A stretch of 64,000 nucleotides of DNA from an uncultured Hyphomicrobiaceae bacterium (lineage in GTDB: Bacteria; Pseudomonadota; Alphaproteobacteria; Rhizobiales; CAYWUX01): positions 9,028 to 73,027 of the forward strand of contig CAYWUX010000014.1 of NCBI GenBank assembly GCA_964461525.1, written 5' to 3'. Position 1 is the stretch's first letter; each line of letters starts with the position of its first letter. Shown here in pieces: positions 1 through 47,222 of this stretch. The notes under the pieces were generated by a model. That model did no database searches and was not told the DNA's origin. It saw nothing but the letters and a program-made list of their open reading frames with translations. The position numbers and the translations under genes were made by a program.

Positions 1-154
1 TTTACGAGAGGCTGGCGCAGATCTAAACATTAAAGATAATGAATCCCTAACTGCTCTAGACCTTGCGGCAAATGATCAGGTGAAAGTGGTGTTAACAAGA
101 TAGTTATTAGGTAAGGTGTTATTGAATTTCTGCAGATTGACAGATATTGCAAGT

Positions 155-859
155 TTAGAAATCTGCTAGAAAGTTTGCCAGTGCTTTAAGTTCTCTATCA
201 GAATAGACATTCATCAGCGATGCCTTAGCAGGCGAATTCAAGCGCTTTTTATATTTGAAGGCCAACATCGTAACCTCAAGATAACTGGCTTTTTGACCTG
301 ATAATCGAGGAACACGGCTTCCTCCCTCGTATCCACCTAGGTGGCACTGAACGCATTGTCCAGCAGTGGCAGCTCTTTCAGCGATAAATATATCTTTTTC
401 TGAGGCAGCATCTTCAATACGAGGCCATGTCTGCTCAGAAAAATATTTAGCCAATTCCTTCATTTCGGTCTTTGACAAGTTAGCGGCTATCTCAGTCATG
501 ATCTCATGTTCACGGCGACGCGCTTTGTAGTCCTTTAATTGAGTATAAAGATAAAAAAAATGTTGACCCGCAATGATGGGTACTTTGGGATCCTCCGATA
601 TTCCGTCTTTCCCATGACAGCTCACGCACAACTCTATTTTTTCATTAGTCTCACTCTCCGCCGAATTCACAGGATTTATCCTGTAAAATAGAAGCGCAAT
701 AAAAATAATTACAAATGATGAGACAATCACTATTGGCACTATTGGCACTATTGGCACTATTGGCACTTTTGGCACTTTTGGCACTTTTGGCACTAATGGG
801 CGAGTTGCATTCCCCTGAAAAGTCGATTTTATTTTTATTTTTGGTTTTCGATTAAGCAT
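155..859 (-). CDS. Dihaem cytochrome c4/c553
   Basis: Two CxxCH motifs (CVSCH, CVQCH), 'PIIAGQHFFYLYTQLKDYK' and 'PRLSGQKASYL' c4 signatures, hydrophobic N-terminal anchor; follows the PQQ dehydrogenase on the same strand. Confidence 0.9.
   Translation of the reverse strand: MLNRKPKIKIKSTFQGNATRPLVPKVPKVPKVPIVPIVPIVPIVIVSSFVIIFIALLFYRINPVNSAESETNEKIELCVSCHGKDGISEDPKVPIIAGQHFFYLYTQLKDYKARRREHEIMTEIAANLSKTEMKELAKYFSEQTWPRIEDAASEKDIFIAERAATAGQCVQCHLGGYEGGSRVPRLSGQKASYLEVTMLAFKYKKRLNSPAKASLMNVYSDRELKALANFLADF
732..794. repeat. 9-bp tandem repeat, (ATTGGCACT)x4 + (TTTGGCACT)x3, in frame within the cytochrome N-terminus
   Basis: Read directly; encodes (PKV)3(PIV)4 on the minus strand. Confidence 0.97.
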
Positions 860-887
860 GACAGTTTGCCCCCGTTCCCTTTAAACT

Positions 888-919
888 TAGAGGGGAGTGT
901 CAATTGCACACCCCCTCTA
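888..919 (-). terminator. Stem-loop between the PQQ dehydrogenase and cytochrome c4 genes
   Basis: TAGAGGGGAGTGT...CACACCCCCTCTA inverted repeat just after the dehydrogenase stop; weak U-tract. Confidence 0.55.
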
Positions 920-942
920 GTAGGCTTTTCTTTAATCAATCA

Positions 943-2661
943 TCAGTCGGCAAGTGTGAATGCAATAATATTGTTACCGCGTTTATAGTTCAATTGGGTA
1001 TTTCCCCCAGCTGCTACAACGATATATTGTTTGCCGTCCACAGTATATGACGAGGGAGGCGCATTTACACCGGCACCGGCTTGGAAATTCCAAAGTATTG
1101 AGCCTGTCTCGGCATCATAAGCTTTGAATTGGCCATTACCTTCACCAGTAAACACCAGGCCGCCCGCTGTTGCCAGAACTCCACCAATCATTGGCTGGGG
1201 GGTTCTGACCTTCCATCGAATTTTGCCAGTGTTAAAGTCAACTGCTGTGATATTGCCCCATTGTTCTTCCGTTGGAATGACCTTGAAAGCCCCGCCGAGC
1301 CACAATTTTCCATTGGGATAGGGAGTGCTTTCAACATGGTAAGTCATAGGTTGATGAAGATTGATTGCGTAAACAAGGCCCAGCTGTTCGTTGACCGCCA
1401 TTGGCGACCACTCCACGCCGCCATTGGCACCTGGCAGCATGCGCTTCCCTTCTTTTGTTGGAAGAGTCCACATATCTTCCTGAACTACCATCGCTTCTGA
1501 AAAACGAATTAGGCTGCAATCATCCCGTTTGTGGACATAGACATGTCCTGTTTTGCCACCATGTAAAACACCCGGGACGGTTTGACCATCATTATCTTTG
1601 ACATCGATCAAGATCGTCGGACTTACAGCGTCTAAATCCCAGACGTCGTGCGCAATATATTGATAATGGCAAACATAATTTCCAGTATCGAGTTCGACCG
1701 CCACCATTGAATTGGTATATAAATTATCACCAGGACGAAGCGAACCATCAAGATCAGGCGAAGGATTACCAACAACGAAATAGACGCGTCGGTTTTCTAA
1801 ATCGACAGAAGGATTTTGCCAGACACCCCCTCCAAGAGTCTTGTATGGATCGCCCGTCTTCTTGAGAGCTGCTTTTTCAGCCTCAATATCACGATGCATG
1901 TCACGACCCGTTGCATCATTTTTAGCCCAAACACCCACGGAATCTTCTGGAATTGTATGGAAGGTCCAAAGTAATTTTCCAGTCTTTGCATCGAAAGCTT
2001 TAACAAAACCACGAATACCGTATTCACCGCCGTTAGTGCCGATTAGAACCTTGCCGTCAACAACTGTTGGCGCCATTGTTTCACTATAACCCAGTTCCGG
2101 ATCAGCAATTTGCTCACTCCAAAGAACCTTACCAGTCTTGGAATCCAAAGCTAACAGTTTCGCGTCCAAGGTCCCCATAAAAACCTTGTCGTCATGTATT
2201 GCTACTCCACGATTGTTTGGACCACAGCAAAATGTAGTAATTGGACCCATCTTATGCTTGTAATGCCAAATCTGTTCGCCAGTTTTAGCATCAAGTGCAT
2301 ATACATGATTGAATGCCGTTGTTGCATACATTATGCCATTTACAACAATGGGTGTTGTTTCCATGGTATCTACAACTTCTGTTTGAAATATCCAAGCTGG
2401 CCTGAGTTGCTTTACGTTTGAAACATTAATCTGTCGATTGGGGTAATAACGGGTTTGTTTGTAGTCGCCATTGGTATGAAGATAATTGTTCCCATCGCTT
2501 GCTGCGCGATTCAACATATCCTGCGTTACAACAGACATATCTCCATATAGAGTTGCTTTTTCAACTTCCTGAGCCGATAAGCCTAGGGTAAAAGAAATTG
2601 TTAAGACCGCTAAAACGGAAATTGTACGGAAGACATTTGAAATTGAGCTATAGATATTCAC
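943..2661 (-). CDS. PQQ-dependent dehydrogenase, methanol/ethanol family, with candidate lanthanide-binding D-x-D
   Basis: Vicinal CC ([10 protein letters not shown]), [32 protein letters not shown], repeated Trp-docking motifs, signal peptide; GTG at 2661 follows an AGGGAGG RBS (ORF track starts 2685). Confidence 0.9.
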
Positions 2662-2925
2662 TGTTACCTCCCTAAATTTTTTCACTGCAGTTTCGCAAAG
2701 CAGTTAGACTGTATTCATCTGCTTATATTATTATAAAATTCCAACGTTAATTATAATTGGGGAACAGAAAAAATCTACCTAATTCTAATGAATCTGAGAA
2801 TCGGACAGAGTAGGTAGTTTTCAAAAAGGTATCATTAAACCAGTAAACTCTTTTAAGGAAAACTCCACCAGCGGATCGATTGGAGCGAAAAAATTTCAAA
2901 ACAACTAAATAGTCAGGTAAGGCTT

Positions 2926-3738
2926 ATGCAGGTCCATCTGGGAGATCTAGTTCATTGTTGGCGGGCATTTCGCGGGATTGTTAAGCGGGAATATTTACGC
3001 CTGATCCATCAGAGGACACGATTTTTAGCATCGCTAGTTCGTCCACTGATCTGGCTCATTATTTTCGCTGTTGGATTTCGTTCGATATTAGGCGTTTCAA
3101 TTACACCTCCCTACGAAACATATATCACCTATGACGAATATATTTTGCCAGGGCTGATCGGAATGATCCAACTTTTCAATGGAATGCAGAGTGCCCTTTC
3201 CATGGTCTATGACAGAGAGATGGGATCGATGCGCGTGCTTTTGTCGACTCCGCTTCCACGATGGTTTCTTCTAATTTCGAGACTAACGGCAAGTGTCGTC
3301 ATTTCATTGTTACTCGTATATGCATTCCTGTTATCGGCATTTCTCTTTGGAACGCGCATACCGTTAATCGGATATATTACAGTAATTCCATCACTCTTGT
3401 TGTCTGGTGCCATGTTAGGTGCGCTGGGAATATTGTTGTCGTCGAAAATAGAGCAAATGGAAAATTTTGCTGGCGTCATGAACTTTGTTATTTTTCCTTT
3501 ATTGTTCGCATCTTCCGCTCTTTATCCATTGTGGCGCGTTCGGGAATCAAGTGTAGTTCTTTACTATTTGTGCCAATTGAATCCTTTTACGCATGCTGTC
3601 GAACTAATCCGGTATTCCATGTACGCAAGGGTCAACTCGGAATCATTGATGGTCGTCTCCATTTGCACAATTCTCTTTCTGACAGTCGCTATTTCTAGTT
3701 ACAGTCCCACTCGTTGGTTTAAGTCCTACCGTCGATGA
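2926..3738 (+). CDS. ABC-2 type permease of the PQQ-ADH-associated transporter (PedC/LutF-like)
   Basis: 'FRGIVKRE...RFLASLVRPLIWL...FAVGFRSILG...YETYITYDEYILPGLIGMIQLFNGMQSALSMVYDREMGSMRVLL' typical of this family. Confidence 0.85.
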   Translation: MQVHLGDLVHCWRAFRGIVKREYLRLIHQRTRFLASLVRPLIWLIIFAVGFRSILGVSITPPYETYITYDEYILPGLIGMIQLFNGMQSALSMVYDREMGSMRVLLSTPLPRWFLLISRLTASVVISLLLVYAFLLSAFLFGTRIPLIGYITVIPSLLLSGAMLGALGILLSSKIEQMENFAGVMNFVIFPLLFASSALYPLWRVRESSVVLYYLCQLNPFTHAVELIRYSMYARVNSESLMVVSICTILFLTVAISSYSPTRWFKSYRR

Positions 3739-3740
3739 AT

Positions 3741-4490
3741 TTAAATCTGGACAATTTCCGGATATGCTGCGGCAAGTTTGGCAATGAACCGCTCTTGTAC
3801 TTCAATAGATCTTTGGGCGCGCGGGAAAGGTATATTAATTTGTTGTATTACATGACCTGGAGTGGACGAAAATAGAACCAATTGATCAGCAACGGAGATG
3901 GCTTCGCGAATATTGTGCGTTACCATAATTATGGTCATAGGATTGTCCTCCCATAACCCGACCAACAGCATTCGTAATCTTTGAGCAATATTCTCGTCAA
4001 TTGAAACGAATGGTTCGTCCATTAAAAGGAGTTGTGGTTCAACAGCGAATGCACGAGCTAAAGCCACCCTTCGAGCTTGGCCCAGTGACAATTCAGATGG
4101 AAAACGCTCTCGTAGTTCAGAAAGGCCGAGTGTTTCGAACAGGTCTGACAAATGTTTATGTTTGAGATGCTCCGGTAACGCCAGGCGGACATTTTGTTCG
4201 ACCGTTCTCCAAGGCAGCAGCAATGGATTTTGAAATACTGCGGCCAGTCTCATTTCGTCGGGTAAATTAACTGAACCCGTAAAATTTGGGTCGAGTCCAA
4301 GTAAAATTCTCAAGGTCGAGGTCTTACCGCAACCTGAAGGGCCAATTATACAGGAGAATGACCCCGGTTTAATATCAAACGCGAGATTACGTATAGCAAG
4401 GAATTCTTCGCCATCTGCACTGGAGAAGCGCTTTTCATCTATCCGGATTTCAAACCGGTTTTGTGCGCCAACGGTTAGCTCTTTCTTCAA
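3741..4490 (-). CDS. ABC ATPase, NitT/TauT family
   Basis: Walker A GPSGCGKS-like (GPSGCGKT), signature LSLGQ, Walker B LLLMDEPF, H-loop VTHN. Confidence 0.93.
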   Translation of the reverse strand: MKKELTVGAQNRFEIRIDEKRFSSADGEEFLAIRNLAFDIKPGSFSCIIGPSGCGKTSTLRILLGLDPNFTGSVNLPDEMRLAAVFQNPLLLPWRTVEQNVRLALPEHLKHKHLSDLFETLGLSELRERFPSELSLGQARRVALARAFAVEPQLLLMDEPFVSIDENIAQRLRMLLVGLWEDNPMTIIMVTHNIREAISVADQLVLFSSTPGHVIQQINIPFPRAQRSIEVQERFIAKLAAAYPEIVQI

Positions 4491-5229
4491 TGGGCTGGAC
4501 CAATAAATATTCGATCAAAAGAATGACAATAACGAACGCAAGCGTGTATCCCAGAATAGCTTTGACATCGAATAATTGAAAATAAAGATGAATTTGAAAT
4601 CCAACTCCGTTAGATCGTCCGAGAAGCTCCACTACTAACACAATTTTCCAGATCAATGAAAGTCCTGAACGTGCTGATGCGGCAATGTAAGGATATAGCT
4701 GAGGCAGGATTACATGACGAATGACAGCAAATTGGGAGAAATCATAAACCCTGGCCATATCTTGATATTCAGATAGTAGCGCTCTAGAACCTTCTCTTAA
4801 AGTGACAATAACATTTGGAATTTTGTTAAGAGAAACCGCAATAATAGCTGCTGCTTCAGTCAGACCTATCCATACATATGCAAGAATAATTATAACAAGT
4901 GCAGGCATATTTAAAAACAGAATAATCCACGGATCGGCTAAATTGTCAGCGGTTCTATTTTGGCCAATATAAATTCCAATAGCTGACCCAATAAGCATTG
5001 CTAATATGAAAGCAGCTAAGACCCGCGCCAAAGTCACTGACAAATGATATGGCAATTGGCCTGACAGAATCTCATTAAACATGAATGAAAATACTTCGGT
5101 TGGCCCGGGGAGAACCTCATTCTGAAATATCGCCGCGGTGGAATACCAAATTAAGAAAAAAAACAGAATTGATGCAGTACGCAGATATGAAGCCTTTTTC
5201 AGCGTAGTGCGCGGGCGTTCATGTTCCAT
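4450..5229 (-). CDS. ABC permease, NitT/TauT family
   Basis: Multiple TM helices, EAA-like loop (EYQDMARVYDF), 'ELLGRSNGVGFQI'. Confidence 0.92.
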   Translation of the reverse strand: MEHERPRTTLKKASYLRTASILFFFLIWYSTAAIFQNEVLPGPTEVFSFMFNEILSGQLPYHLSVTLARVLAAFILAMLIGSAIGIYIGQNRTADNLADPWIILFLNMPALVIIILAYVWIGLTEAAAIIAVSLNKIPNVIVTLREGSRALLSEYQDMARVYDFSQFAVIRHVILPQLYPYIAASARSGLSLIWKIVLVVELLGRSNGVGFQIHLYFQLFDVKAILGYTLAFVIVILLIEYLLVQPIEERANRWRTKPV

Positions 5230-6208
5230 CGGTTAAAAAAACCCAGAAAGTTCCTTTCGCCAACTGCGAAGCTGATCCAACTAGTTTCTCTCCTCCAAGC
5301 TTGGCAAGAATGTCGTATATTCTTGCAGTGTCTAGTTGCTCTTCCACCATCGGTCTTTTGGGAATACCTTCTCGAAAACGCAATTTTAGAATCTCAAACG
5401 TTTTATCGTCTTTTGCTTTTGTCAATTCACGCAGCCGGCCCCATTCCAAATCTGAAGTCGCAAGGAGGTTTTTAGCAGACGAGGAGGCTTTGAGAAAACC
5501 CAGGGCAGCGTTCATATTGTTTTTAGCCCAGGTTTCCGAGAATACGTACCCGAGAGCCGAAATCCGACCGTTGGCACCAAGTAACCGTGCCACATCATTA
5601 GCTCCAACTAACCGTCGGAACCCGTTTGCTTCTAATCTGGCAGAAAAATGCCAATAGTTAATGACGGCATCTAGTTCGCCTTGCAGCGCCTTTTTATACA
5701 AAAGAGGAGGTGCTCCAAATATTTGCTCAGTCTGGTCTTTCAGATCTATTCCGTAATCGCGTTTGGCTAGACCGCGTATCAGAAGCCAACTCTTGTCTAA
5801 CGGACCACCTGCGATACCGATTTTTTTACCCTTTAGATCAGCCAATGTTTTTACAGGAGATTTGTTCTCCACCATCAACGCGCCTATTGCCGACGAATAA
5901 GGAACAAAAGCCAGAAGCTTGCCATTTGCGCGTTGTCGCGATACCCAGAGCCAGTCGCTTACGATAAAATCAATATCCCCTGCCTGAAGCGCAAATCTTG
6001 ACGCCTGCGTACTGGCAAAATGGACAATTTCCAATTCAATGCCCTGCGCTTTGTCAAAATTATTATTTTTTATGGTATTTAATTCCCAGTTTACTGTCCC
6101 AAACTTCAAGACGCCAACGCGTACTTTTTGAAACGCATCGGCAGGCCAGCTAACAATCTGGAGCACACAAAATACGACTAAAACCAAAAATCTGGATATC
6201 ACTGACAC
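5219..6208 (-). CDS. NitT/TauT-type periplasmic binding protein, PqqT-like (candidate PQQ uptake)
   Basis: Signal peptide; 'VGVLKFGTVNWEL', 'SDWLWVSRQR', 'GGPLDKSWLL' motifs seen in binding proteins beside PQQ dehydrogenases; overlaps the permease gene. Confidence 0.8.
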   Translation of the reverse strand: MSVISRFLVLVVFCVLQIVSWPADAFQKVRVGVLKFGTVNWELNTIKNNNFDKAQGIELEIVHFASTQASRFALQAGDIDFIVSDWLWVSRQRANGKLLAFVPYSSAIGALMVENKSPVKTLADLKGKKIGIAGGPLDKSWLLIRGLAKRDYGIDLKDQTEQIFGAPPLLYKKALQGELDAVINYWHFSARLEANGFRRLVGANDVARLLGANGRISALGYVFSETWAKNNMNAALGFLKASSSAKNLLATSDLEWGRLRELTKAKDDKTFEILKLRFREGIPKRPMVEEQLDTARIYDILAKLGGEKLVGSASQLAKGTFWVFLTDGT

Positions 6209-6656
6209 CTGAATACTCCTGAAAATTTTTTAATCCGCACTTTCGATTGCGTTGGCAAAATAGTCGGCTCCTGAGCTCAATGTAGTCCCATCCCTATTTC
6301 GAACACTGACTATAGATAAACCCGCACCAGTGTTTCAAAGGTAATATCATAGCACAACACTAAACATATCAGGCATCAAGTGTTTTCCGTGTATATGGCT
6401 GAATTTTTGATTTTCTGAGAATAGCTTTTGGGTTGTTTATTTGAACCACCTTTGGATATTTTGTCGGTGGTGAGCTCAGTCTTTTTACAAGGCAATAGAG
6501 ACGTAAAAAAAATAGTGCTTAAGATTTATAAACAAAGGGGACCGACTAGTTATAATTTCTGGACTTCGAATACACGCTCAATATAGATTTATAAGTATAT
6601 TCATTTAAAGAAACTCTCTTCAATTTCTGATTCGCCAAATTGAAATTTGGAGGATA

Positions 6657-7118
6657 ATGGTTAAAAACATGACGATGGGAATTAGTCGAATTATATTTGT
6701 CGTATTATTCACTTTGAGTGTGGGTATTCCGAATTTTGGTTTCCCGATCAAATCTTCTTATGCCAAGGGAAATATTACAAAACGAGCAATTCGCCTCCCT
6801 CAATTAGAACTACAGGCATCGAAAGGATTCTCCAGAAAAAATTATGAGATCGAAACCGGAGTTTATTATCGCTGGCGAATTAGTAGTGACGGCAAGGAAG
6901 AATACAAACTTTTGGCGCCCGAATTCTTTCGGAATTCATGGATTGATCAAATCTCGATTGAGGATAAGGAAGTCAAGCCATTTGGGCTTTATTCGGTCGA
7001 ATTTGATGATGAAGGAGTAATCGATATTTGGTTTGTGGCAATCCGCCCCGGCAGATATGAGTATTTCGTTGAAGGACTGGCCAATCAGGGATTCAAAGGA
7101 GTCATCAAAGTCGAGTAA
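6657..7118 (+). CDS. Exported cupredoxin-fold protein without copper ligands, PQQ-cluster associated
   Basis: GGAGG RBS, signal peptide, beta-rich 'FVAIRPGRYEYF...GFKGVIKVE' cupredoxin-like C-terminus; no Cys, His or Met in the mature part. Confidence 0.7.
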   Translation: MVKNMTMGISRIIFVVLFTLSVGIPNFGFPIKSSYAKGNITKRAIRLPQLELQASKGFSRKNYEIETGVYYRWRISSDGKEEYKLLAPEFFRNSWIDQISIEDKEVKPFGLYSVEFDDEGVIDIWFVAIRPGRYEYFVEGLANQGFKGVIKVE

Positions 7119-7233
7119 GTATTGATATGTGATTTTATTTTCGTGATGCGAAGCTAAAATTTCTTCTAATACCGATTTATGGTTACAGCAGCTCTTTTTC
7201 AAAAGAGGAAACAAAATTGAAACTCGAATAAAA

Positions 7234-8280
7234 GTGGATAAAACAATTATGTGCCCAACCAGTTTTTTGATCGACTATTCTTACATCAAGCAATTGCGAC
7301 TGAGGTGGGTTATTATTTTTTTAGTTATTTTATTTATTTGTAGTTTTAAGTCTTTTTCTTCTAATGCTAGGGGATCTGGACGAACGATAATCAGCAATGA
7401 AAAAGGAAATACGCTGACAATTCTTGATTCGTCCGACAAGATAATTCAAACAATTGATACGTGCACGCGTCCACGGGGTATGCATTTCAGTGAAAACCGC
7501 AAGCGGTTTTTTGTCGGATGTGGCGATGATTCATTAATAGCCATCTATGATTTGGCGACCCTGGAACTCGTCGGTCGCATCACGAATGTCGCACAACCCG
7601 AAACTTTCGATCTACATCCAAATGGAAAACATCTTTATGTTTCAAATGAGGAGGATGCAACAGTAACCCTTTTTGATGTTACAACTGGAGAACAATTGGC
7701 AGAGTTTGAGACGGGCGAAGAGCCAGAGGGAGTTCAAACTACCTCAGATGGAAAATTTGTATTCGTTGCTTCTGAAGCTGCCAACCTTGTTCATGTAATA
7801 GACGTGGATAAAAATATCGTAGTCAAAGACATTTTGGTTGATACGCGTCCACGCCGGTTTGCCCTGACCCCCGACGAACAAGAGCTTTGGGTTTCTGCTG
7901 AATTGGCAGGTGTCGTCAATATCATTGATATAAAATCACTAAAATTGATCGATGATATTGCTTTTTTGCCAACAGGCTTTCGCAAAGAACAGGTGACTCC
8001 TGTGGACGTCCTCATTACCAAAGATGGCGTTCGCGCTTATGTGGCTCTTGGTCGGGCGAACCATGTGGCCGTTGTTGATGTTAAATCCCGTGAAGTAATC
8101 AAATATATTTTAGTCGGAAAACGCGCCTGGGGCCTAGCGTTAACTCATGACGAGAAAAAACTCTACGTTGCCAATGGACTTTCGGACGATATAACGATTA
8201 TCGACACTGACAATCTTAGGGCAATGAAATCTATTCCTGTTGGATTGGTACCATATGGCATACTTATCGATGATCATTAG
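7234..8280 (+). CDS. YVTN beta-propeller protein, PQQ-catabolism associated (PedA2-like)
   Basis: Repeated 'LYVSNE', 'VFVASE', 'LWVSAE', 'AYVALG', 'LYVANG' blades with P-x-G/PE motifs; start may be ATG 7249. Confidence 0.9.
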   Translation: MDKTIMCPTSFLIDYSYIKQLRLRWVIIFLVILFICSFKSFSSNARGSGRTIISNEKGNTLTILDSSDKIIQTIDTCTRPRGMHFSENRKRFFVGCGDDSLIAIYDLATLELVGRITNVAQPETFDLHPNGKHLYVSNEEDATVTLFDVTTGEQLAEFETGEEPEGVQTTSDGKFVFVASEAANLVHVIDVDKNIVVKDILVDTRPRRFALTPDEQELWVSAELAGVVNIIDIKSLKLIDDIAFLPTGFRKEQVTPVDVLITKDGVRAYVALGRANHVAVVDVKSREVIKYILVGKRAWGLALTHDEKKLYVANGLSDDITIIDTDNLRAMKSIPVGLVPYGILIDDH

Positions 8281-9472
8281 CCGAGTAAGTATCATACTTC
8301 TGTTACTGGCCGGGAGCGCAACCCTGCCCGCTGCCGCACAGGAGGAAGAGTCCGAGTTTGTATTTGCTTACGTCACTCGTGAGGCGGATCCGTTTTATCA
8401 AAAGCAACGAGCTTATACCGGATTAAAATTACGTGAGGCCAAACCCTTGAAAGATGCCGCACTTTTAGCTCTCGGGGAAAGTCGCATTTTGGGCCGCTTG
8501 GCGAGAGTGAAATTCAAACTTGTTGAGATGATGCTGAAGAAATCGGACAACATCTCAACAGCTTTATTGAAGTTACATCGTGAAAGTAACGCTAGCGTAT
8601 ATTTGTTGGATATACCTTTGAATGACTTAATAAGTGCTGGAAGAGCCTTGGCCGGAGAACAAGAGCTTTTGCTGTTTAATATTCGTCACGGGGAAGATTC
8701 TTTGCGAGGTGAAAATTGTTCTCCTGTAATATTTCACACCTATCCTAGCAACGCAATGCTCATGGATTCAATTGCCCAATATTTGGTCAAGAAAAAGTGG
8801 TCCCGGATTCTTGCTCTTCGCGGCTCAATGAAGGAGGACAAACGGCTCACTGAAACATTTGTCCGGTCCGTAAAAAAATTTGGTCTCAATATCGTGGGAA
8901 TAAAGGAATTCACCTTGAGCAATGATCCACGGTTACGAGACCGTACTAATATTTCATTGCTCACGGGCTCGACCAGCTACGACATAATTTTCCTGGCGGA
9001 CACACAAGGTGATTTTGGCCGATATATCCCATACAGCGCATATTATCCCAGACCCGTTGTCGGTTCAGAGGGTCTCAAAGCAAGTGCATGGCATTGGACC
9101 TGGGAACGTCATGGGGCTCCCCAGTTAAATCAGCGGTTCGACCGTCGAACGAAACGGCGAATGAATGGCAGGGATTGGGCATCCTGGATGGCAGTAAGAT
9201 CTGTTACAGAAGCAATTGTTCGGATCAAATCGTCTGATGTTCAGGAAATCAGCAGCTATCTTGTTTCTGAATCCGCAACCTTTGACGGTTATAAAGGAGT
9301 GCCGGTAAATTTTCGCCGCTGGAATAATCAACTCCGGCAGCCAATATTACTTCATGTACATAACGCGGTCATAGCGCGGGCTCCAATTGACGGATTTCTC
9401 CATCGATCTAACACGCTTGATACTTTGGGTCTCGATCATCCAGAGTCAAGTTGCAATTTCCAAGGTAACTAA
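8270..9472 (+). CDS. ABC substrate-binding protein of the PQQ-ADH system (PedA1/LutA-like, LivJ-type fold)
   Basis: Signal peptide; 'WHWTWERHGAPQLNQRF', 'FRRWNNQLRQPILL', 'APIDGFLHRSNTLDTLGLDHPES' family motifs; overlaps the beta-propeller stop (ORF track start 8240). Confidence 0.88.
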   Translation: MIISRVSIILLLLAGSATLPAAAQEEESEFVFAYVTREADPFYQKQRAYTGLKLREAKPLKDAALLALGESRILGRLARVKFKLVEMMLKKSDNISTALLKLHRESNASVYLLDIPLNDLISAGRALAGEQELLLFNIRHGEDSLRGENCSPVIFHTYPSNAMLMDSIAQYLVKKKWSRILALRGSMKEDKRLTETFVRSVKKFGLNIVGIKEFTLSNDPRLRDRTNISLLTGSTSYDIIFLADTQGDFGRYIPYSAYYPRPVVGSEGLKASAWHWTWERHGAPQLNQRFDRRTKRRMNGRDWASWMAVRSVTEAIVRIKSSDVQEISSYLVSESATFDGYKGVPVNFRRWNNQLRQPILLHVHNAVIARAPIDGFLHRSNTLDTLGLDHPESSCNFQGN

Positions 9473-9758
9473 GGATAGAGCCAGAAAAAGCATTTGATAC
9501 TACATCCAGTTAAAGCACCGATAACCAGTTGTCGTCGCGACAAGAAACCCCTGGCCAATATTCGCTAACAGATCATTGTTGAATTTAGTTCTGCTCGACA
9601 ATCCTGAAATTGATCAAATGATTGTTAGTTCGGCCTAAAATTCGAATGTTGTCATCTAGTAATTAATAAAGAGATCATGATTCAATTTTATGACATCAGG
9701 ATTGTTTTAAATACTCGGCTATTCCATGCGAAGATAGTTCCTGGATATTCTTGAGTCT

Positions 9759-11441
9759 TCAGAAAACAGATTTTAAATTCTTGCCAGACGCATGCGAGCG
9801 TTGAATAACCGGTGATACGACGCGATCTGAAACCGGAAAGTCCCAGACGGCTGCTCGACCATTACTTTCAAACTCCTCTATTAGTTCTGGAATGGTGCTA
9901 AGGTCCTCAACACGCTCCCCGCGCAAACCAAAGCCCTGTGAAATTGCCGCAAGATCGGTTCTCCCGAATACAGCACCTTCGTCGGGAAATCCGTCTGCGC
10001 GAAGTTTCTGAATTTCTGAACCATAGCCTCCATCGTTGAGAACGCAGACAAGAATTTTGAGCTCATGCCGCTTTATTGTTTCAAGTTCCTGCACATGCAT
10101 CAGCAAACTTCCGTCACCATCAAAAAGAACGACGGGCCGGTTGGGGCGCGCTGCAGCGACACCAATAGCGAATGAGATGCCGTTCCCGATGGCACCAAAC
10201 TCCCGGATAGTAAGGAAACGTTCAACGGGCCGTGAAGGCATCTGCGCGAAAAAATAAGAGCAGTGACCGGAAGAGTTAACTAGTTCCCAATCCATTGGCA
10301 CATCGCTTTCCAGAGCTGAAACAACATTTCGCGGATCATGGAGTCCTGGCTCTATATCAAACGGCGTGCTGTCCGCTGGCTTGTTTTTTATAAATTCAGA
10401 CAAAGCTGAACTTCTCCACTGATTTGGACGTTCAGTGACCGCAACTGTCAGAGCTTCCACACCCAATCGTGCATCTGCCCTTACATGTTCCCCGGCAACT
10501 AACTGCCCCTGGCTGATGGCTATCGGATCCACATCGATCTGAAGAACTTTGGCATCAGGCCAGAGTTTACCTCCATCCGTGTTGTGCTGCGCAAGACTGC
10601 ATCCTACAGCAATTATGAGATCAGCATCTGAAAGACATTCGCGCCCCACCTGTGAGGAATATCCGCCTGAAATTCCAATTGAAAACGGATCATCATGGAA
10701 CAGCCCCCTTGCAGGTAAGCTAGTCGCCAATAGCGCATCGCATTTCATTGAAAACTTTCGGCAGGCTTCGCCAGCATTGCTCTGAACAGCGCCAATCCCT
10801 GCGATAACGACAATGCGCCGAGACTCTTTAATTAATTTTGCCGCCCGGGCGATCTCCTGCGGGTGAGGTTGGATGGGTTTGATATCCGGGGCAATTAGAT
10901 GAGAGGGGTCGGGTAATGGATCAGTAATGTTAACGGGAGTGTTCTGCAAGTCGAGGGGAACGCCCAGAATTACTGGCCGCTTTTTTAATTTTGCCTGCAA
11001 AAACGCGTCTCTAACCTCCTGGGCCATAAGTTCGGGATGATGTAACGATTTGTAGACTGCACCCGCTGCCCTTACAAAGGGTGCCTGATCGATGGCCTGA
11101 TTATACCAGTTTGACTTTATAGGAGCTTCGCCTGCAAAAATAACTAATGGAATGTGGGCGCGAACAGCTGCCGGCAACGCAGTCAAAATTTGGGTTAATC
11201 CAGGTCCACATGTTACTGTTGCCACACCGATATTCCCGGTCTTACGGGAATAAGCCATTGCAGCAGCTACGGCACAGTGTTCGTGACGCACATAGATCAT
11301 GCGAGTGCCCAACGCGCTGAGGCAACTGGCCCATTTCATATTACCGTCACCCAGTAGCGCAAAACAGGTCTCGACTCGCTCCTGTACAAATGCACGGGAA
11401 AGAAGCTCATAAACCTTTGTTTGTTCGATTTCAGTTTTCAA
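9759..11441 (-). CDS. Thiamine pyrophosphate-dependent enzyme (acetolactate synthase-like, substrate unknown)
   Basis: 'RHEHCAVAAA', 'TCGPGLT', TPP motif GDGS...NDGGYG. Confidence 0.9.
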   Translation of the reverse strand: MKTEIEQTKVYELLSRAFVQERVETCFALLGDGNMKWASCLSALGTRMIYVRHEHCAVAAAMAYSRKTGNIGVATVTCGPGLTQILTALPAAVRAHIPLVIFAGEAPIKSNWYNQAIDQAPFVRAAGAVYKSLHHPELMAQEVRDAFLQAKLKKRPVILGVPLDLQNTPVNITDPLPDPSHLIAPDIKPIQPHPQEIARAAKLIKESRRIVVIAGIGAVQSNAGEACRKFSMKCDALLATSLPARGLFHDDPFSIGISGGYSSQVGRECLSDADLIIAVGCSLAQHNTDGGKLWPDAKVLQIDVDPIAISQGQLVAGEHVRADARLGVEALTVAVTERPNQWRSSALSEFIKNKPADSTPFDIEPGLHDPRNVVSALESDVPMDWELVNSSGHCSYFFAQMPSRPVERFLTIREFGAIGNGISFAIGVAAARPNRPVVLFDGDGSLLMHVQELETIKRHELKILVCVLNDGGYGSEIQKLRADGFPDEGAVFGRTDLAAISQGFGLRGERVEDLSTIPELIEEFESNGRAAVWDFPVSDRVVSPVIQRSHASGKNLKSVF

Positions 11442-11860
11442 ATGTCAATCTCCCATAAATCCGAACGTATCCAATCTTTTTTGTGATTGAAATTAATTTC
11501 GCAAGCGCTTAACAGTATCTTGCATCACAACTTCCTGCAGGCCTACGCAACATAGCCAGCCTACCGCTGAGCCAAGCGGTAGCCGATAGATCGTACATGA
11601 GGATTTTAACAGGAGAAATCTTCATGTCGATCAAGATTAGCATGTTTGCTTACATCACCGCCTATTCTGGTGCGCTTCACACATTGATCCGCCAATCTCT
11701 TCTAACGCCATAATGCGGAAAGCTTTCCTTTACCGGGAAGAGAACAGTGAACCCGGGAGGCCCATCATGAAAGACTTGACAACTAACCCGGAATTAGAGA
11801 ACAGTCTGGGTCATGAACGGTCCTTTTCCTTCGACTGAAAAGGAGTCCGTTTCGCCTCCA

Positions 11861-11878
11861 ATAGTGTTGCAAAAGTCG
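11861..11878. mobile_element. Possible orphan IS terminal inverted repeat (TGTTGCAAAAGTC)
   Basis: ATAGTGTTGCAAAAGTCG resembles IS ends I recall from alphaproteobacteria; no partner repeat or transposase nearby. Confidence 0.3.
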
Positions 11879-11955
11879 GCTTTCAGGCTGAGGATTATTA
11901 GTGCTGTGCAAGGGTCATTAAGACCGAGGAAGCAGCGGCCGCATAATTGGCAAGT

Positions 11956-12489
11956 CTAAAGCTGATCGATGAGCTGGTTAACGGGTGCATCGGCGTTTAA
12001 CAATCGATCGCACTGATTGGCTCCCATGACTGGTAAATTCCCCTCTAATAGACCCAATTGCACTAAAACGGTAGCCTGATCCCAATAAATATGCTCGGAA
12101 CTGATCAAGCCATTCTCAAATGCAATTATCGCAACATGCGGAATGGCAAGCCGGCGATCTGTCGGTTCTATACCGGGGGCGAACCAATCCATTCGAACGG
12201 TATGGGTGAAGCGCAGAATGAATTCATCGATGATGCGTCCCTGACCGACGCTGCGCGTTAACAGTTCCAGTTCCGCATCCTCTGGCATTTGTGGAATGAA
12301 GATCTCCGCGTAAAATTTTCGCAATGCCTCTCGACCGGTCGCGCCGGTATTCACGGGCACATGTATTAACACAGGGTGTTCTGTCATCGTGGCAATTGCC
12401 GCGTCAGCATCTCCCGTACTGAATTCGCTCGCCGTATGAGCCTCCCAGACATCGATGAGTGCTTGTTCATTATCGTTGAACTGATTCAT
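11956..12489 (-). CDS. SnoaL-like / ester cyclase family protein
   Basis: AGGAG RBS; 'WEAHTASEF...AIATM...HVPVNTGATG...EHIYWDQATVLVQLGLL'. Confidence 0.88.
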   Translation of the reverse strand: MNQFNDNEQALIDVWEAHTASEFSTGDADAAIATMTEHPVLIHVPVNTGATGREALRKFYAEIFIPQMPEDAELELLTRSVGQGRIIDEFILRFTHTVRMDWFAPGIEPTDRRLAIPHVAIIAFENGLISSEHIYWDQATVLVQLGLLEGNLPVMGANQCDRLLNADAPVNQLIDQL

Positions 12490-13198: not shown

Positions 13199-15910
13199 TC
13201 ATTTTTGACAACTTTCTGCTTTGAGCAAGGCGACTGGGAAGGTGTTAAGTATTTCGCTAAGTCTAAGACTCGTTTCCCCGTTAATTGTTTGTTTGTTTGT
13301 CAAGTTAAGCCATCTTTTCCCCGAGAGTTGCTCCGGCAAAACAATACACGTATCCTCCCAAATATCCGGGGGAACAATTGACTGAGTTTGTCCACTAAGC
13401 AAAGCACTGACTAAACGAGGAGCGACCGCTATGGCGGCATCCCCGTCAAGGCACCGAGCGAATGCAACTACATGGTTTGCCAATGCGTTTTCTGCCCTGA
13501 GGGGCAGATACGCGCCATCCGAAAAAAGTTCCGGACAACGTTTTCGATAGGCGAGCCCAACCATAAGTAAACGCATCTTTATTGCACCTGATGGCCAATC
13601 TGAAAGTAACTTTTTCTGATCCCAGGTCCTTATCTCATTTAACAAACGGCTACGCCGATCGAAATCAACTGGACGCCTGTTGTCCGGATCAACTAGACTG
13701 AAGTCCCACAGTTCACTTCCCTGGTATAAATCAGGCACTCCCGGAGCCATGAGCTTCAACAGAGTTAACGTTAGACCGTTGAGTGCACCAGCAACGAAAA
13801 TTGGTTGGCATGTGCTAGAAAAATCTTCTAGAAATTGACCCGATATACTGGGATCGAGCGTATTGCGGACAAAAATTTCTATAGTTTCCTCGTATTCAGA
13901 ATTCTGATCCGTCCAGCTCGTATAAACCTTTGCTTCGCGCACGGCTTTTAACATGAATTGTGTCATGCGGTCCTGGAAGTCCCGCCATTTTTCCTCATGC
14001 TTTATGATCTGCTCAAGTGGCCATGCACCCAAGAGCGTCTGATAATACAACCATTCGGTTTCTGGGTCTGGTAATTTGTGCTCTTTAGTGTCCCGATGCA
14101 GATGTGCATTCTGTTTAGTCCATCTTGTGACGGCCGAAAACCAGTCATTTGACAGTTCGCTCAACGTATAGAGACGGGCGCGTGTATCCTCTCCACGCTT
14201 CGTATCGTGCGTGGAGGTTGCGCTGAGTCCCAATGGCTGTCGAACTTGTCGACAAAACATTTCGTCATGGAAGGCTTCTGGCGGCGCACCAAACTGTTCA
14301 GGTTGTCCCCCAACTTCATTTAATCCGATAAATCTATTGTATTGATAGAATACAGTATCTTCGAGGGCCTTAGCCATGACGGGTCCCGTTGTCTGCTGGA
14401 ACCGCGTCGTAAATTCCAAGGCAGAAGCTTGGTCGTCAGGCGAAATAAATTCGAGTAACAAGATTCGAGAAATAAAATGAAGGGCTCCTTGGTCTTCGAC
14501 TTCTCGCGCTGCAACAGCAGATTGTGTAGCGTCTTCTATAACTTTGCGATCGGTATCAGAAGGACCTGAGACGTCCACATAAGTGCGGTATACTGGCAGT
14601 GCGGCTGCGAGCTCAACAATGGCGCGCCTTAATGTATCGGGACCAAAATCTCGCGTTCGATAATCTCGTTCCGCCAGCGAGATTGCCATTTCTTTGAGGT
14701 AGGCAAGCTCGCCGGCGAGATTGCGTGAAAGAATTTTTCGTTTGTTGTCCAGTACAAGTGCCGGATAATCAATCTCCTGACCAATATAACGATGATACGC
14801 TTCGGTCACAATGGCAACACCGTCCGAATCAACGAGTAGGTTTCCAAGCGATCTTATGAACTCGTATCCGGTAGTACCGGCAACAGGCCAATCTTGCCGC
14901 AGCTCTTCATTGGGCCCAAGTATCTTTTCCACGATGATATAAAATAATTTTTTTCCATTGGCCTCAGTTTGTAATTTCTTAAGATAACTCTTGGGATCTG
15001 CGAGACCATCAATGTGATCCAGACGCACTCCTGTAATGCAATTTTTCTTGATCAAATTAAGCAATTTCATATGCACGTCTTCAAAGACACGATTGCTTTC
15101 TACTCTAAGGCCGACCAGATCTGCAATTTCAAAAAAGCGCCTATAGTTAAGAGTCTCGCGTGCCGCACGCCAGTGCGCGAGCTGCCAGACTTGTGCTTCG
15201 TGCAGCTCATGGATGGCGTTCCTATCGCTGCTCGTATCCTCTAATTTTTTTTTGATAGATAAGTGTACCGATTTATTTCTGGCGAGATCGGCTAACCCCT
15301 TCTTTAGACTTTGGGAAACTTCTGGCGTAGAGACTGCAAAGCGCCGGGTAAGCTCAACAAAAGACTCGTCTTTGAGATGTGTGAATAGTTGAGCATACGA
15401 AGGCGGTGTTAAAGGTAACTTCAACTGACCATAAGAGAAAAATATGCCTCCATCGCAAACATCGAAAACTAATCCAAACTTGCCCTCGTCAAGCTCCTTG
15501 CCATATCCAGCCGCCAAGGCAGGCACAACGAGTTTCGGGGCCGTCCAGTCAATGTCAAAATGCTGAGCGTAATCACTACGAGCACCCCATTCGAGCACAT
15601 CACGCCACCACGGATTGTATGGCGTTGAGCCCATATGATTCGGAACAAAATCGATTATTAAACTTAGTCCATAATGTTTCAATGCGCCGATCAATTTCCC
15701 AAACTCGTCCTCACCCCCAAGGGAACGTTCAAGGCCGCTAAAATCTATAACGTCATATCCATGCGTGGAACCAGGTGCAGCTGTAAAAATGGGAGAGGCA
15801 TAAAGATGGCTTATACCTAGTTGATTGAGATACGGAACGAGATCTAAAGCTCGTCCAAATGTCATGCCATTACGAAACTGCAGGCGGTATGTTGCTGTTG
15901 GCCTGTTCAT
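13199..15910 (-). CDS. treY: Malto-oligosyltrehalose synthase
   Basis: 'PTATYRLQF', 'GSTHGYDV', 'RLDHIDGL', 'STHDTKRGED', 'PGVPDLYQG'. Confidence 0.97.
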   Translation of the reverse strand: MNRPTATYRLQFRNGMTFGRALDLVPYLNQLGISHLYASPIFTAAPGSTHGYDVIDFSGLERSLGGEDEFGKLIGALKHYGLSLIIDFVPNHMGSTPYNPWWRDVLEWGARSDYAQHFDIDWTAPKLVVPALAAGYGKELDEGKFGLVFDVCDGGIFFSYGQLKLPLTPPSYAQLFTHLKDESFVELTRRFAVSTPEVSQSLKKGLADLARNKSVHLSIKKKLEDTSSDRNAIHELHEAQVWQLAHWRAARETLNYRRFFEIADLVGLRVESNRVFEDVHMKLLNLIKKNCITGVRLDHIDGLADPKSYLKKLQTEANGKKLFYIIVEKILGPNEELRQDWPVAGTTGYEFIRSLGNLLVDSDGVAIVTEAYHRYIGQEIDYPALVLDNKRKILSRNLAGELAYLKEMAISLAERDYRTRDFGPDTLRRAIVELAAALPVYRTYVDVSGPSDTDRKVIEDATQSAVAAREVEDQGALHFISRILLLEFISPDDQASALEFTTRFQQTTGPVMAKALEDTVFYQYNRFIGLNEVGGQPEQFGAPPEAFHDEMFCRQVRQPLGLSATSTHDTKRGEDTRARLYTLSELSNDWFSAVTRWTKQNAHLHRDTKEHKLPDPETEWLYYQTLLGAWPLEQIIKHEEKWRDFQDRMTQFMLKAVREAKVYTSWTDQNSEYEETIEIFVRNTLDPSISGQFLEDFSSTCQPIFVAGALNGLTLTLLKLMAPGVPDLYQGSELWDFSLVDPDNRRPVDFDRRSRLLNEIRTWDQKKLLSDWPSGAIKMRLLMVGLAYRKRCPELFSDGAYLPLRAENALANHVVAFARCLDGDAAIAVAPRLVSALLSGQTQSIVPPDIWEDTCIVLPEQLSGKRWLNLTNKQTINGETSLRLSEILNTFPVALLKAESCQK

Positions 15911-17826
15911 ATTGAACGCGGACGCTCTGAAGCCACAGCCTGAATAATATCCAGAAATGGAGAAGAATTTTTCAATTCACTGATGGCTAAGGGAAGTTTA
16001 CGACGCCAGTTGGGGTGTTCACCTACTGTACCAGGCACATTGATCTGCTGAATTACTTCTGCCAAATCTTCAATCTGAACGGCCACCAATCGACATGGTG
16101 TTCGGGCTAAAAATTTGTGGAGAGCAATTATGAGCTCATTCGTCAATTCGTCTGGAGGAAGTTCTTCACCTCGCGCTGCAGGATAAAGCTCATCAGGTAG
16201 CAACGCTTCATCGGCCAGAGCAGAAAGCAGCTGCTGCCGGTCTTTAATTCGCTGAGCCATTAAATCTGACTCGTAAGTTAAACGCTCAATGCCAAATTGG
16301 CCGAGTTGCTTAATATCAAGTCCGATCCACCATCCACGAAGCGTTGGCAGATCATGTGTTGAGATACAGGCGAGAGCATCTTTCGAATAGTAAGATGGCG
16401 CTCGAAAACGCCGCCCCTCTTCTCTCTCAAAAAATAAAACTAAATAACGTTGAACCCGGGCTTGCTTCATAATATCGCGGAAATTGGCCGGTACGGTACC
16501 TAGGTCCTCTCCAATAACAAGTGTCTGTGTCGAATGCGAAATTGCTGCTAATACCTGAAGCGTTTGGTTCATTGGATAATGAACATAAGCTCCGCCAGAA
16601 CCGTCAAGCCCGTCGGCAATGAGATAAAGACGGTTGAGTGACATGACATGATCAATTCGAATAGCTCCGGACCGCAGCATAGATTCTTGCAAAGTTGAAC
16701 CGAATGCACTTCCATTGTCCTCCCGTAATACAATTGGTGACAAGGGAGCGAGACCCCAATCCTGGCCCTGGGCATTCAGAGCATCTGGTGGACTTCCAAT
16801 TCTAATGCCGCGCAAAAAGATTTCTGGTTCAAACCAAGTATCAGCACCATCGGGAGCGACACCAACTGCCAGATCAAGATATAGTCCTATGCGCATCCCA
16901 GCTGAGAGGGCCCGTTGTTGCGCATTTTCGAGTTGTTGGTCTGCAATCCATTGCAACCACATATGGAACAATACTCGGTCCTTTTTTTCCTCACAGAATG
17001 TCCTGACAACTTCTGTATTTGGGTCTTTAAACGTATCTGGCCATCCATGCCAACCACAAGGAAATCCTTGGCGAACCATTTCTTCTGACAGCGCTTCGAA
17101 CAGCGCAAATTTTTTTAAAGTTTCTCCTCGATCATCGCAAAAGGACTTGAACGCAATATCCTTATCTGAACCGGTCCCCAGTTGGCATGCGCAGAAACGA
17201 ATAAAGCTCCTCTCCAATGCTACCCTTTTAAGGCGTGCGACGGCCTCATAATCAACAAGTTCTGATTCACGAACTTTTTGAATTTCCCCAACATCGATAT
17301 AGCTTGCAATATGCTGTTCATTATTTTCAATTTTATCGACAGCAATATAAAATGTGTTGAGAAAGCGGCGGCTCGACGGGGAATAAGGGCTGAAGCGATT
17401 AGGATCTGAAGAGAATAACGCGTGCAAGGGATTTACACCAACAAAATCAGCTCCAGCCGAACCAGCAAGCTCTACAAATTTTGCCAAATCTTCAAAATCG
17501 CCGATACCCCAGTTCCGAAGTGACCGAAGGCTGTATAGCTGACACATTATTCCCCAGGCACGTCCATCTTCTAACCATTTCGGAAGAAAACAACGGGGAA
17601 CATCTACTTCCGAGACCCCGCCTCTGAGATTTTGTTGTGCGTGAATAAGGCTTGAGTGTATCGCTTCATCTGAATCCGCCGCAACTCCAAGAGCTTCCAG
17701 AAGGCCCTGCTTAGCATTTTCACTGGCATGACACTGTTCACCCGTCTCTCTAAGGTAGCTGAGAGCTATACCATAAAATTCAGCCAACTCATCTAATTTT
17801 GCGTTCATCTTATCGTCTTTAGCCAC
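15907..17826 (-). CDS. malQ: 4-alpha-glucanotransferase (GH77)
   Basis: 'WGIGDFEDL', 'SPYSPSSR', 'RIDHVMSL', 'IGEDLGTVP', 'STHDLPTL', 'NVPGT...NWRRKL'. Confidence 0.96.
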   Translation of the reverse strand: MAKDDKMNAKLDELAEFYGIALSYLRETGEQCHASENAKQGLLEALGVAADSDEAIHSSLIHAQQNLRGGVSEVDVPRCFLPKWLEDGRAWGIMCQLYSLRSLRNWGIGDFEDLAKFVELAGSAGADFVGVNPLHALFSSDPNRFSPYSPSSRRFLNTFYIAVDKIENNEQHIASYIDVGEIQKVRESELVDYEAVARLKRVALERSFIRFCACQLGTGSDKDIAFKSFCDDRGETLKKFALFEALSEEMVRQGFPCGWHGWPDTFKDPNTEVVRTFCEEKKDRVLFHMWLQWIADQQLENAQQRALSAGMRIGLYLDLAVGVAPDGADTWFEPEIFLRGIRIGSPPDALNAQGQDWGLAPLSPIVLREDNGSAFGSTLQESMLRSGAIRIDHVMSLNRLYLIADGLDGSGGAYVHYPMNQTLQVLAAISHSTQTLVIGEDLGTVPANFRDIMKQARVQRYLVLFFEREEGRRFRAPSYYSKDALACISTHDLPTLRGWWIGLDIKQLGQFGIERLTYESDLMAQRIKDRQQLLSALADEALLPDELYPAARGEELPPDELTNELIIALHKFLARTPCRLVAVQIEDLAEVIQQINVPGTVGEHPNWRRKLPLAISELKNSSPFLDIIQAVASERPRSI

Positions 17827-21798: not shown

Positions 21799-21811
21799 TA
21801 GCGATCTCCGA

Positions 21812-24049: not shown

Positions 24050-24055
24050 GCTCCT

Positions 24056-32393: not shown

Positions 32394-32491
32394 ACACAAT
32401 ATTCCAGAAATTTCCAACGCGGTAGCTCAACACGGTATAGCCTTAAGGGGCAGGGCTTGTTCGATTTAAATAAGGGGCTATGACATCACAA

Positions 32492-32519
32492 ATGACCGGT
32501 CTTGGCTATTAGCAGTCAT
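32492..32519. repeat. Short REP-like palindrome (ATGACCG...CAGTCAT)
   Basis: Imperfect inverted repeat just downstream of the cyclase gene; similar to elements at 54299 and 55768. Confidence 0.5.
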
Positions 32520-32566
32520 AAAGCTCACTTTACAAATCATTGCACAATATTTCCTACTTGGATAGA

Positions 32567-41163: not shown

Positions 41164-41166
41164 AAC

Positions 41167-47188: not shown

Positions 47189-47194
47189 AGTCAA

Positions 47195-47222
47195 CTATTC
47201 CTTATTCTCTATTCCTTATTCT
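47195..47222. repeat. 14-bp tandem duplication (CTATTCCTTATTCT x2) covering the narK stop and narG RBS
   Basis: Read directly. Confidence 0.9.

Follow-up and report, generated by a model that had tools for sequence, protein, structure and literature searches.

A lanthanide-motif PQQ dehydrogenase clustered with putative uptake genes for both of its cofactors in an uncultured salt-marsh bacterium

The lanthanide-uptake systems PedA1A2BC of Pseudomonas putida KT2440 and LutABEF of Methylorubrum extorquens, and PqqT of M. extorquens AM1, which binds pyrroloquinoline quinone (PQQ) (9B1U/9B1V; Ho and Cotruvo 2019; PMC11331073), are the closest described counterparts of a gene cluster in an uncultured salt-marsh bacterium. 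Lanthanide-dependent growth requires PedA1A2BC and LutAEF (PMC6839425, PMC7391723). PqqT binds PQQ with a reported dissociation constant of 50 nM, and published work treats it as a protein for periplasmic capture and retention of PQQ, a molecule able to cross the outer membrane by diffusion. The cluster occupies positions 155-9472 of a 64,000-nucleotide stretch of contig CAYWUX010000014.1 (the window) and consists of nine genes in four transcription units according to the open reading frame (ORF) map, Pfam and NCBIfam. These encode a PQQ dehydrogenase and a dihaem cytochrome, a PqqT homologue with the permease and ATPase of an ATP-binding cassette (ABC) transporter, homologues of PedA1, PedA2 and PedC, and a small exported protein with a cupredoxin fold. 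The locus is, with a probability of about 0.6, a periplasmic alcohol-oxidation module combined with supply lines for its two cofactors.

The clustering named in the original prediction (PQQ dehydrogenase, cytochrome c4, NitT/TauT trio and PedA1/PedA2/PedC-like genes) was recovered in place from the ORFs and the Pfam and NCBIfam profiles. It is not due to chance: the gene order is reproduced in three independent assemblies with an identity of >99.6%, and across 80 genomes the gene sets of the module are found again near members of the dehydrogenase family. Every part can be assigned to a described family, and the three-module layout is not special to this locus but is already present, unremarked, in rhizobial xoxF loci. 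In Rhizobium leguminosarum (L088) and Sinorhizobium (L089) the lutA-lutB-cupredoxin-lutE-lutF genes, pqqT-permease-ATPase and a PQQ dehydrogenase with its cytochrome are found within ~12 kb, in the order lutA-lutB-160 aa-lutE-lutF-210 aa, then pqqT-permease-ATPase, then xoxF-xoxG-xoxJ. The rhizobial loci differ from the window in that the dehydrogenase is XoxF (734 bits to TIGR03075), accompanied by the monohaem XoxG, XoxJ and genes for the handling of formaldehyde, and in that pedB/lutE is present.

A PQQ-type binding protein was the riskiest guess of that prediction, and the alignment bears it out. Among all PDB sequences the product of 5219-6208 (minus strand), a class II periplasmic binding protein, is most similar to PqqT (9B1U/9B1V, E 3.8e-74), with 44% identity over the whole mature protein: residues 28-316 align to residues 4-292 of the 9B1U chain, 289 residues without a gap. 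Nitrate and sulfonate binders, the grouping that would speak against a PQQ ligand, follow only at E 2.8e-05 (a nitrate-transport binding protein) and 4.8e-04 (SsuA, 2x26). The 9B1U structure is that of M. extorquens PqqT with PQQ bound, in which the ligand is contacted by the backbone of L37, A42 and G112, by the side chains of T41, K142 and N143 and by the stacking Y188, with I222 near and E111 pointing away (PMC11331073). When the numbering was mapped, 9/9 residues named in that paper were reproduced in the PDB chain. The window protein has L, T, V, I, G, K, S, Y and L at the positions of L37, T41, A42, E111, G112, K142, N143, Y188 and I222. T38, G109, K139 and Y185 thus correspond to T41, G112, K142 and Y188 of PqqT, while S140 replaces N143, and E111 and I222 are exchanged for I and L. 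T41, G112 and K142 are invariant among 24 homologues, and position 188 is Y or F. This pattern supports the view that the protein is a PqqT homologue and not a sulfonate or nitrate binder, and it is predicted to bind PQQ.

The permease gene (4450-5229, minus strand; BPD_transp_1, PF00528, SsuC/TauC-like in NCBIfam) encodes an inner-membrane protein. The NitT/TauT-type ATPase gene (3741-4490, minus strand) matches ABC_tran in Pfam, with Walker A GPSGCGKT, signature LSLGQ and Walker B LLLMDEP, and its best NCBIfam matches are of the TauB, SsuB and NrtCD types. Both overlap or abut the pqqT gene on the same strand, and the trio is syntenic in 14 other loci (10 of the dehydrogenase family and 4 xoxF loci). 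The arrangement resembles that of M. extorquens, where a permease and an ATPase of NitT/TauT type also stand alongside pqqT near a lanthanide-type PQQ dehydrogenase. It differs from it in that the dehydrogenase of the window is not XoxF and no PQQ biosynthesis genes are nearby. As originally noted, the window lacks such genes: pqqB, pqqC and pqqE were not found among its ORFs of at least 150 aa. The PqqT family is large (>5900 matches), and members in Rhizobium, Sinorhizobium, Mesorhizobium and Chelativorans, which are ~60% identical to the window protein, carry generic annotations. Among the few papers on this protein given by a full-text literature search for 'PqqT', none seems to be devoted to its gene neighbourhood, and PqqT has so far been studied only as purified protein. 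PqqU (YncD) of Escherichia coli is likewise a PQQ-scavenging device in which a lysine takes the place of the metal on PQQ (K274 in PqqU, K142 in PqqT). PqqU, however, is a TonB-dependent transporter of the outer membrane with another sequence and fold, and no TonB-dependent receptor was found among the window ORFs of at least 150 aa.

The module genes were mapped by tblastn in 80 genome loci that carry the dehydrogenase family, each taken with flanks of 10 kb. A ped gene of some kind is found in 57 of them. The beta-propeller (PedA2) is present in 55/80 loci and the PedA1-type binding protein, always beside the beta-propeller, in 50/80. pedB and pedC are each found in 20/80 loci and are adjacent wherever both are visible (19 loci), with the two exceptions situated at contig ends. 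The pqqT-permease-ATPase trio is present in 10/80 loci, pqqB/C/E in 19/80 and the gene for the small exported protein in 17/80. There is no locus among the 80 with both pqqT and pqqB/C/E. One locus (L027) has the order pedB-pedC-pqqB-pqqC-pqqD-pqqE-pedA2-pedA1, each gene assigned by NCBIfam equivalog models, and three others (L042, L056 and L058) have the order pedB-pedC-pqqT-permease-ATPase-pedA2-pedA1. One operon slot therefore takes either PQQ synthesis or the PqqT transporter. This alternation is the best available evidence and suggests that the transporter serves PQQ supply. Seen from the other side, 4/4 sampled PqqT homologues on long contigs adjoin a PQQ dehydrogenase (R. leguminosarum, Sinorhizobium, Chelativorans and a metagenome-assembled genome (MAG) from ENA). 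In the ENA MAG (L091), pqqB and pqqC are located only a few genes from the pqqT transporter genes, so that PqqT alone is no sign of auxotrophy.

The dehydrogenase gene (943-2685, minus strand) lies upstream of the cytochrome gene and has an ORF of 580 aa, or 572 aa from the start chosen by gene callers. It is barely above the cut-off of the methanol/ethanol PQQ family (TIGR03075, 486 vs 480.05 bits). The protein carries the lanthanide-type motif W-D-L-D-A (W349-D350-L351-D352) in addition to E221, N307 and the vicinal C153-C154, and the metal ligands E221, N307, D350 and D352 are invariant in 80/80 loci of the family. The description 'lanthanide-type' in the original prediction agrees with this D-x-D motif and the full set of ligands, from which the enzyme is predicted to use light lanthanides. 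The closest solved structure is PedH (6zcv, 306 bits, E 4.9e-90), followed by a type II quinohaemoprotein alcohol dehydrogenase (293 bits), ExaA (279 bits) and XoxF (6dam, 254.6 bits, 1.4e-74). PedH/ExaF (6ZCV/6ZCW) has the same ligands (D-x-D, Glu and Asn), shares the vicinal disulfide and is likewise a soluble quinoprotein without a haem domain. It has a partner of c550/PedF type in contrast to the dihaem c4-type protein in the window, and its 306 bits compare with >1090 bits (74-91% identity) within the family of the window enzyme. The identity is 32% to rhizobial XoxF and at most 37% to any PQQ dehydrogenase on the replicon of Methylobacterium aquaticum 22A on which, by locus tag, the type 6a Adh4/Adh6 are located. 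Because of these low similarities compared with those in its own family, the enzyme appears to represent a separate, uncharacterised and highly conserved clade outside XoxF and PedH/ExaF, in line with the earlier proposal that it is neither. Its dihaem partner also differs from that of XoxF, and there is no XoxJ-type gene near the dehydrogenase.

Alpha-, Beta- and Gammaproteobacteria of marine, salt-marsh and soil origin carry members of this family. They include MAGs of Alpha- and Gammaproteobacteria and isolates of Tistlia, Propylenella, Alsobacter, Alloyangia and Marinobacter guineae, and at 63-71% identity the family reaches Ideonella, Caballeronia and Paraburkholderia. The RefSeq label is 'PQQ-binding-like beta-propeller repeat protein'. 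A 260-nt contig of a salt-marsh metatranscriptome maps to the dehydrogenase gene at 1562-1821, showing that it is transcribed. A Joint Genome Institute contig (L003) lacks 54 bp of the gene (window 2161-2214) and has one more indel, by which the gene is called in two pieces; this is due either to variation in the population or to an error of assembly. The Alloyangia pacifica plasmid NZ_CP022192.1 (L092, 59496-79166) is a cultured carrier of the dehydrogenase family and a possible experimental system for the clade. Within 9 kb it also has a second set of genes (binding protein, YVTN propeller, binding protein and ATPase) and a PQQ-associated protein with a CXXCW motif.

The cytochrome gene (155-859, minus strand) encodes a dihaem c-type cytochrome of the c4 family with the haem motifs CVSCH and CVQCH (Pfam Cytochrom_C/CBB3). 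Two stretches of the protein match 1h1o, 6q2u and 1etp, and its best solved relatives are cytochrome c-552 (1h1o, 5.8e-19) and cytochrome c4 (6q2u and 1etp). It is located directly 3' of the dehydrogenase gene in 76/80 related loci. The part of the earlier claim that names a c4-like dihaem cytochrome as the partner of the enzyme is supported by a conserved downstream position, and the cytochrome is the predicted electron acceptor. The cytochromes of the relatives are ~205 aa long. At the 5' end of the cytochrome ORF there is a 9-bp x 8 tandem repeat (728-799, Tandem Repeats Finder) encoding VPKVPKVPKVPIVPIVPIV (a PKV/PIV repeat), where short-read assemblies break and the sequencing depth doubles. 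The repeat may belong to a variable leader or lie upstream of the true start of the cytochrome. Convergent with the cytochrome gene, positions 1-101 (plus strand) code for the C-terminal part of a protein with ankyrin repeats (…AGADLNIKDNESLTALDLAANDQVKVVLTR*). In L005-L007 and on the Alloyangia pacifica plasmid an ankyrin-like gene likewise comes after the cytochrome, and it might be a further conserved partner of the dehydrogenase family.

The lanthanide-uptake genes of the window are homologous to those beside the lanthanide-type PQQ alcohol dehydrogenases in P. putida and M. extorquens, where proteins of the TIGR03863, TIGR03866 and TIGR03861 families occur together. In the nomenclature of P. 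putida (PMC6839425) the name pedA1 stands for the binding protein and pedA2 for the beta-propeller, so that the order in the window is pedA2-like followed by pedA1-like, which corrects the naming used earlier. The YVTN beta-propeller (PedA2/LutB, 7234-8280, plus strand) reaches 322.7 bits to TIGR03866 (cut-off 287.3). The Peripla_BP_6 substrate-binding protein (PedA1/LutA, 8240-9472, plus strand) reaches 395.2 bits to TIGR03863 (E 2e-118) over profile positions 15-347 of 347, which is 18 bits under the curated cut-off of 413.6, and it has no PDB sequence match. Its syntenic orthologues are above this cut-off (L027 445.7 bits, L088 483 bits). The PedC/LutF-type ABC-2 permease (2926-3738, plus strand) matches the full TIGR03861 profile at 388.9 bits (cut-off 241.35). 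Its gene is divergent from the dehydrogenase gene across a gap of 240 bp and convergent with the pqqT-permease-ATPase unit. In contrast to the Ped/Lut importers, the window lacks the PedB/LutE ATPase, LutG, LanD, LanM and the TonB receptor LutH, and the inverted pqqT operon divides the genes between two transcription units.

The proposed lanthanide ABC importer is therefore present only in part: homologues of PedA1, PedA2 and PedC flank the dehydrogenase, but the gene for the ATPase is not in the window. A tblastn search of the 64 kb with the PedB of a relative (L057, 302.8 bits to TIGR03864) found no pedB/lutE, and the sole match was the NitT/TauT ATPase with 27% identity. pedB precedes pedC in 19/19 observable relatives. 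A position just left of the cytochrome, as expected from an inversion, was considered for pedB and rejected, since 1-101 belongs to the ankyrin-repeat protein. A locus from another study (L093), the dehydrogenase of which is 91% identical, has the same order without pedB: permease and ATPase convergent with pedC, then the divergent dehydrogenase. Between the window and L093 the ratio of nonsynonymous to synonymous substitutions (dN/dS) is 0.04-0.15 for all genes, which indicates purifying selection, with 0.094 for PedC at dS ~1, ~0.07 for the beta-propeller and PqqT, and 0.15 for the cupredoxin. Since L093 shares the order and PedC is conserved to this degree, the absence of pedB is neither an assembly error nor a recent decay. 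PedC thus appears to be functional, with an ATPase encoded elsewhere in the genome. The NitT/TauT ATPase is an unlikely substitute, because PedC is a permease of a different fold class and such a pairing would be unprecedented.

The gene at 6657-7118 (plus strand) was overlooked in the original prediction. It encodes an exported protein of 153 aa with no Pfam, NCBIfam or PDB sequence match but with 479 homologues. One of these (L088 6701-7183, 39% identity, E 9e-26) is the 160-aa gene between lutB and lutE of the rhizobial clusters. The interval between lutB and lutE is the position of lutC in M. extorquens, the deletion of which leads to a slight defect in La-dependent growth (PMC7391723). 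In an AlphaFold model based on 34 homologues the predicted local distance difference test score is 87, with >95 in the core. The model shows a Greek-key beta-sandwich that is matched by Foldseek to cupredoxin domains of laccase, nitrite reductase and AcoP with a probability of 1.0. The His/Cys/His/Met copper ligands are missing: across an alignment of 34 family members no Cys, His or Met is conserved. Those residues that are invariant have acidic or aromatic side chains, the acidic ones being D78, E82, E105, E115, D117 and D123, in 'SDGxEEY' and 'EFDDEGxID'. It is plausible that the protein handles a metal other than copper, and it may be a new protein of the periplasm that handles lanthanides. 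LanD was considered as an identity for the protein and rejected, because LanD is an unrelated 6.8-kDa three-helix bundle.

Taken as a module with two supply lines, the locus probably works as follows. The Sec-exported dehydrogenase, with PQQ and a light lanthanide, would oxidise some alcohol or aldehyde in the periplasm, and the electrons would pass to the co-transcribed c4-type dihaem cytochrome. The PqqT-type protein would capture periplasmic PQQ and dock on its own permease and ATPase, forming a complete type I ABC importer. The PedA1/LutA, PedA2/LutB and PedC/LutF homologues, the acidic cupredoxin-fold protein and an unlinked PedB would carry the lanthanide across the inner membrane, as genetic work has shown for PedA1A2BC and LutAEF. 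The orphan PedC may draw its power from an ATPase whose gene is not adjacent. Several points weigh against such a view. PQQ enzymes are periplasmic, which leaves import of PQQ into the cytoplasm without an obvious purpose; the literature sees PqqT as a protein of periplasmic capture and retention. 'Scavenging' in the sense of PQQ auxotrophy relies only on pqq genes missing from 64 kb, and pqqT is no marker of auxotrophy, being found alongside pqqB/C in L091 and alongside PQQ biosynthesis in M. extorquens. The lack of overlap between pqqT and pqqB/C/E is statistically weak (hypergeometric P ~0.055, uncorrected for phylogeny). The D-x-D motif predicts the use of lanthanides but does not prove it, and with pedB missing, the genes present here do not make up a lanthanide importer that can work by itself.

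The source of PQQ is the point at which the readings diverge most. It is possible, though it is not the favoured view, that the organism makes PQQ from pqq genes outside the window and that the PqqT transporter merely supplements this by recapturing or retaining leaked PQQ or by feeding a regulatory signal. M. extorquens has both PqqT and pqqBCDE, the ENA MAG has the transporter genes and pqqB/pqqC in one neighbourhood, and the visible genome is limited to 64 kb, all of which agree with self-made PQQ. On the other hand, pqqBCE and the pqqT transporter genes co-occur within 10 kb in 0/29 dehydrogenase loci with either, and biosynthesis and transporter cassettes share one operon slot across several loci. 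The strongest form of the opposite view, that the transporter truly replaces pqqBCDE in a PQQ auxotroph living on the PQQ of its neighbours through an inner-membrane ABC importer, must be regarded as tentative. If true, it would give such an importer a defined physiological role for the first time, and a periplasmic cofactor would then pass through, or be sensed in, the cytoplasm in the way that lanthanides do. That the NitT/TauT trio imports some other anion (sulfonate, nitrate or an aromatic acid), with a likeness to PqqT that does not extend to the ligand, is highly improbable. Pfam and NCBIfam give only the generic NMT1/SsuA families and three residues have changed (N to S at 143, E to I at 111 and I to L at 222), but the identity of 44% is ungapped, the contacting T, K and Y side chains are kept and the strained metal-mimicking lysine is invariant across the PqqT family. 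The repeated linkage of the trio to PQQ dehydrogenases points in the same direction.

Doubts about the metal are of two kinds. The dehydrogenase might use Ca2+ or be metal-promiscuous despite its D-x-D motif, with the Ped/Lut genes serving another purpose. The motif is only predictive, and Voutsinos et al. report cofactor heterogeneity inside families; yet D352 and the other ligands are invariant in 80/80 family members and 57/80 loci carry ped/lut genes, the sole demonstrated role of which is in lanthanide-dependent growth, so that a calcium enzyme seems unlikely. It is still harder to regard the Ped/Lut genes as a decaying remnant after the loss of pedB, with the lanthanide reaching the enzyme by another route. 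The missing pedB and the ankyrin-repeat gene as left neighbour of the cytochrome would fit with decay, but PedC is of full length (389 bits), the order without pedB persists in a relative at dS ~1, and the dN/dS values of PedC (0.094), the beta-propeller and PqqT (~0.07) and the cupredoxin (0.15) argue against it. A functional module supplied with both cofactors remains the preferred reading of the locus.

Such a module does not overturn current ideas but extends the known lanthanide-associated gene set to a new enzyme clade. What is new is that the layout is tied to a different, uncharacterised clade of alcohol dehydrogenases with the lanthanide motif and a c4 partner, that biosynthesis and uptake alternate in one operon slot, that an arrangement without pedB is conserved, and that a fold is assigned to the protein at the LutC position. 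The slot alternation provides comparative evidence for a PQQ supply by the transporter in vivo and points to tractable organisms. The cupredoxin without copper ligands is a recurrent, unstudied member of lanthanide-uptake clusters, also present in the rhizobial Lut clusters at the LutC position. Why cofactors of a periplasmic enzyme enter the cytoplasm is a question for the whole field, for PQQ as well as for lanthanides.

Between the pqqT operon and the cupredoxin-pedA2-pedA1 operon the ORF map shows an AT-rich divergent intergenic region of 448 bp (6209-6656), presumed to hold promoters. Matches to promoter-like and terminator-like consensus sequences were not more common than in shuffled sequence, and the two divergent intergenic regions of the cluster have no repeat in common. 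No Rfam family matched at E up to 0.1 in positions 1-12000. A thiamine-diphosphate enzyme, which is acetolactate-synthase-like but under all equivalog cut-offs, and a SnoaL-like protein adjoin the module at 9759-12489 (minus strand). They were rejected as parts of the module because relatives do not keep them next to the dehydrogenase.

The remainder of the window holds shikimate genes and genes for cyclases, NarGHJI and enzymes of the GlgE glucan pathway. An alpha-glucan operon of seven genes on a single strand (13199-29403, minus strand) encodes the GlgE maltosyltransferase, a TreS-Pep2 fusion (amylase and kinase-like APH domain), GlgB, an isoamylase-type enzyme carrying CBM48, an enzyme of the alpha-amylase family carrying DUF3459, MalQ and another protein of the alpha-amylase family. 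A metacaspase (Peptidase_C14) adjoins an adenylate/guanylate cyclase with TPR repeats at 31458-34327, and a second cyclase, located at 54517-55515, has a SAM domain at its N-terminus as well as the beginning of an AAA_16 ATPase domain. The respiratory nitrate reductase genes narGHJI (39593-49954, minus strand) have a gene for a 912-aa major facilitator superfamily protein upstream, probably a NarK-NarK fusion, and a PpiC-type rotamase downstream, and the source organism can probably respire nitrate.

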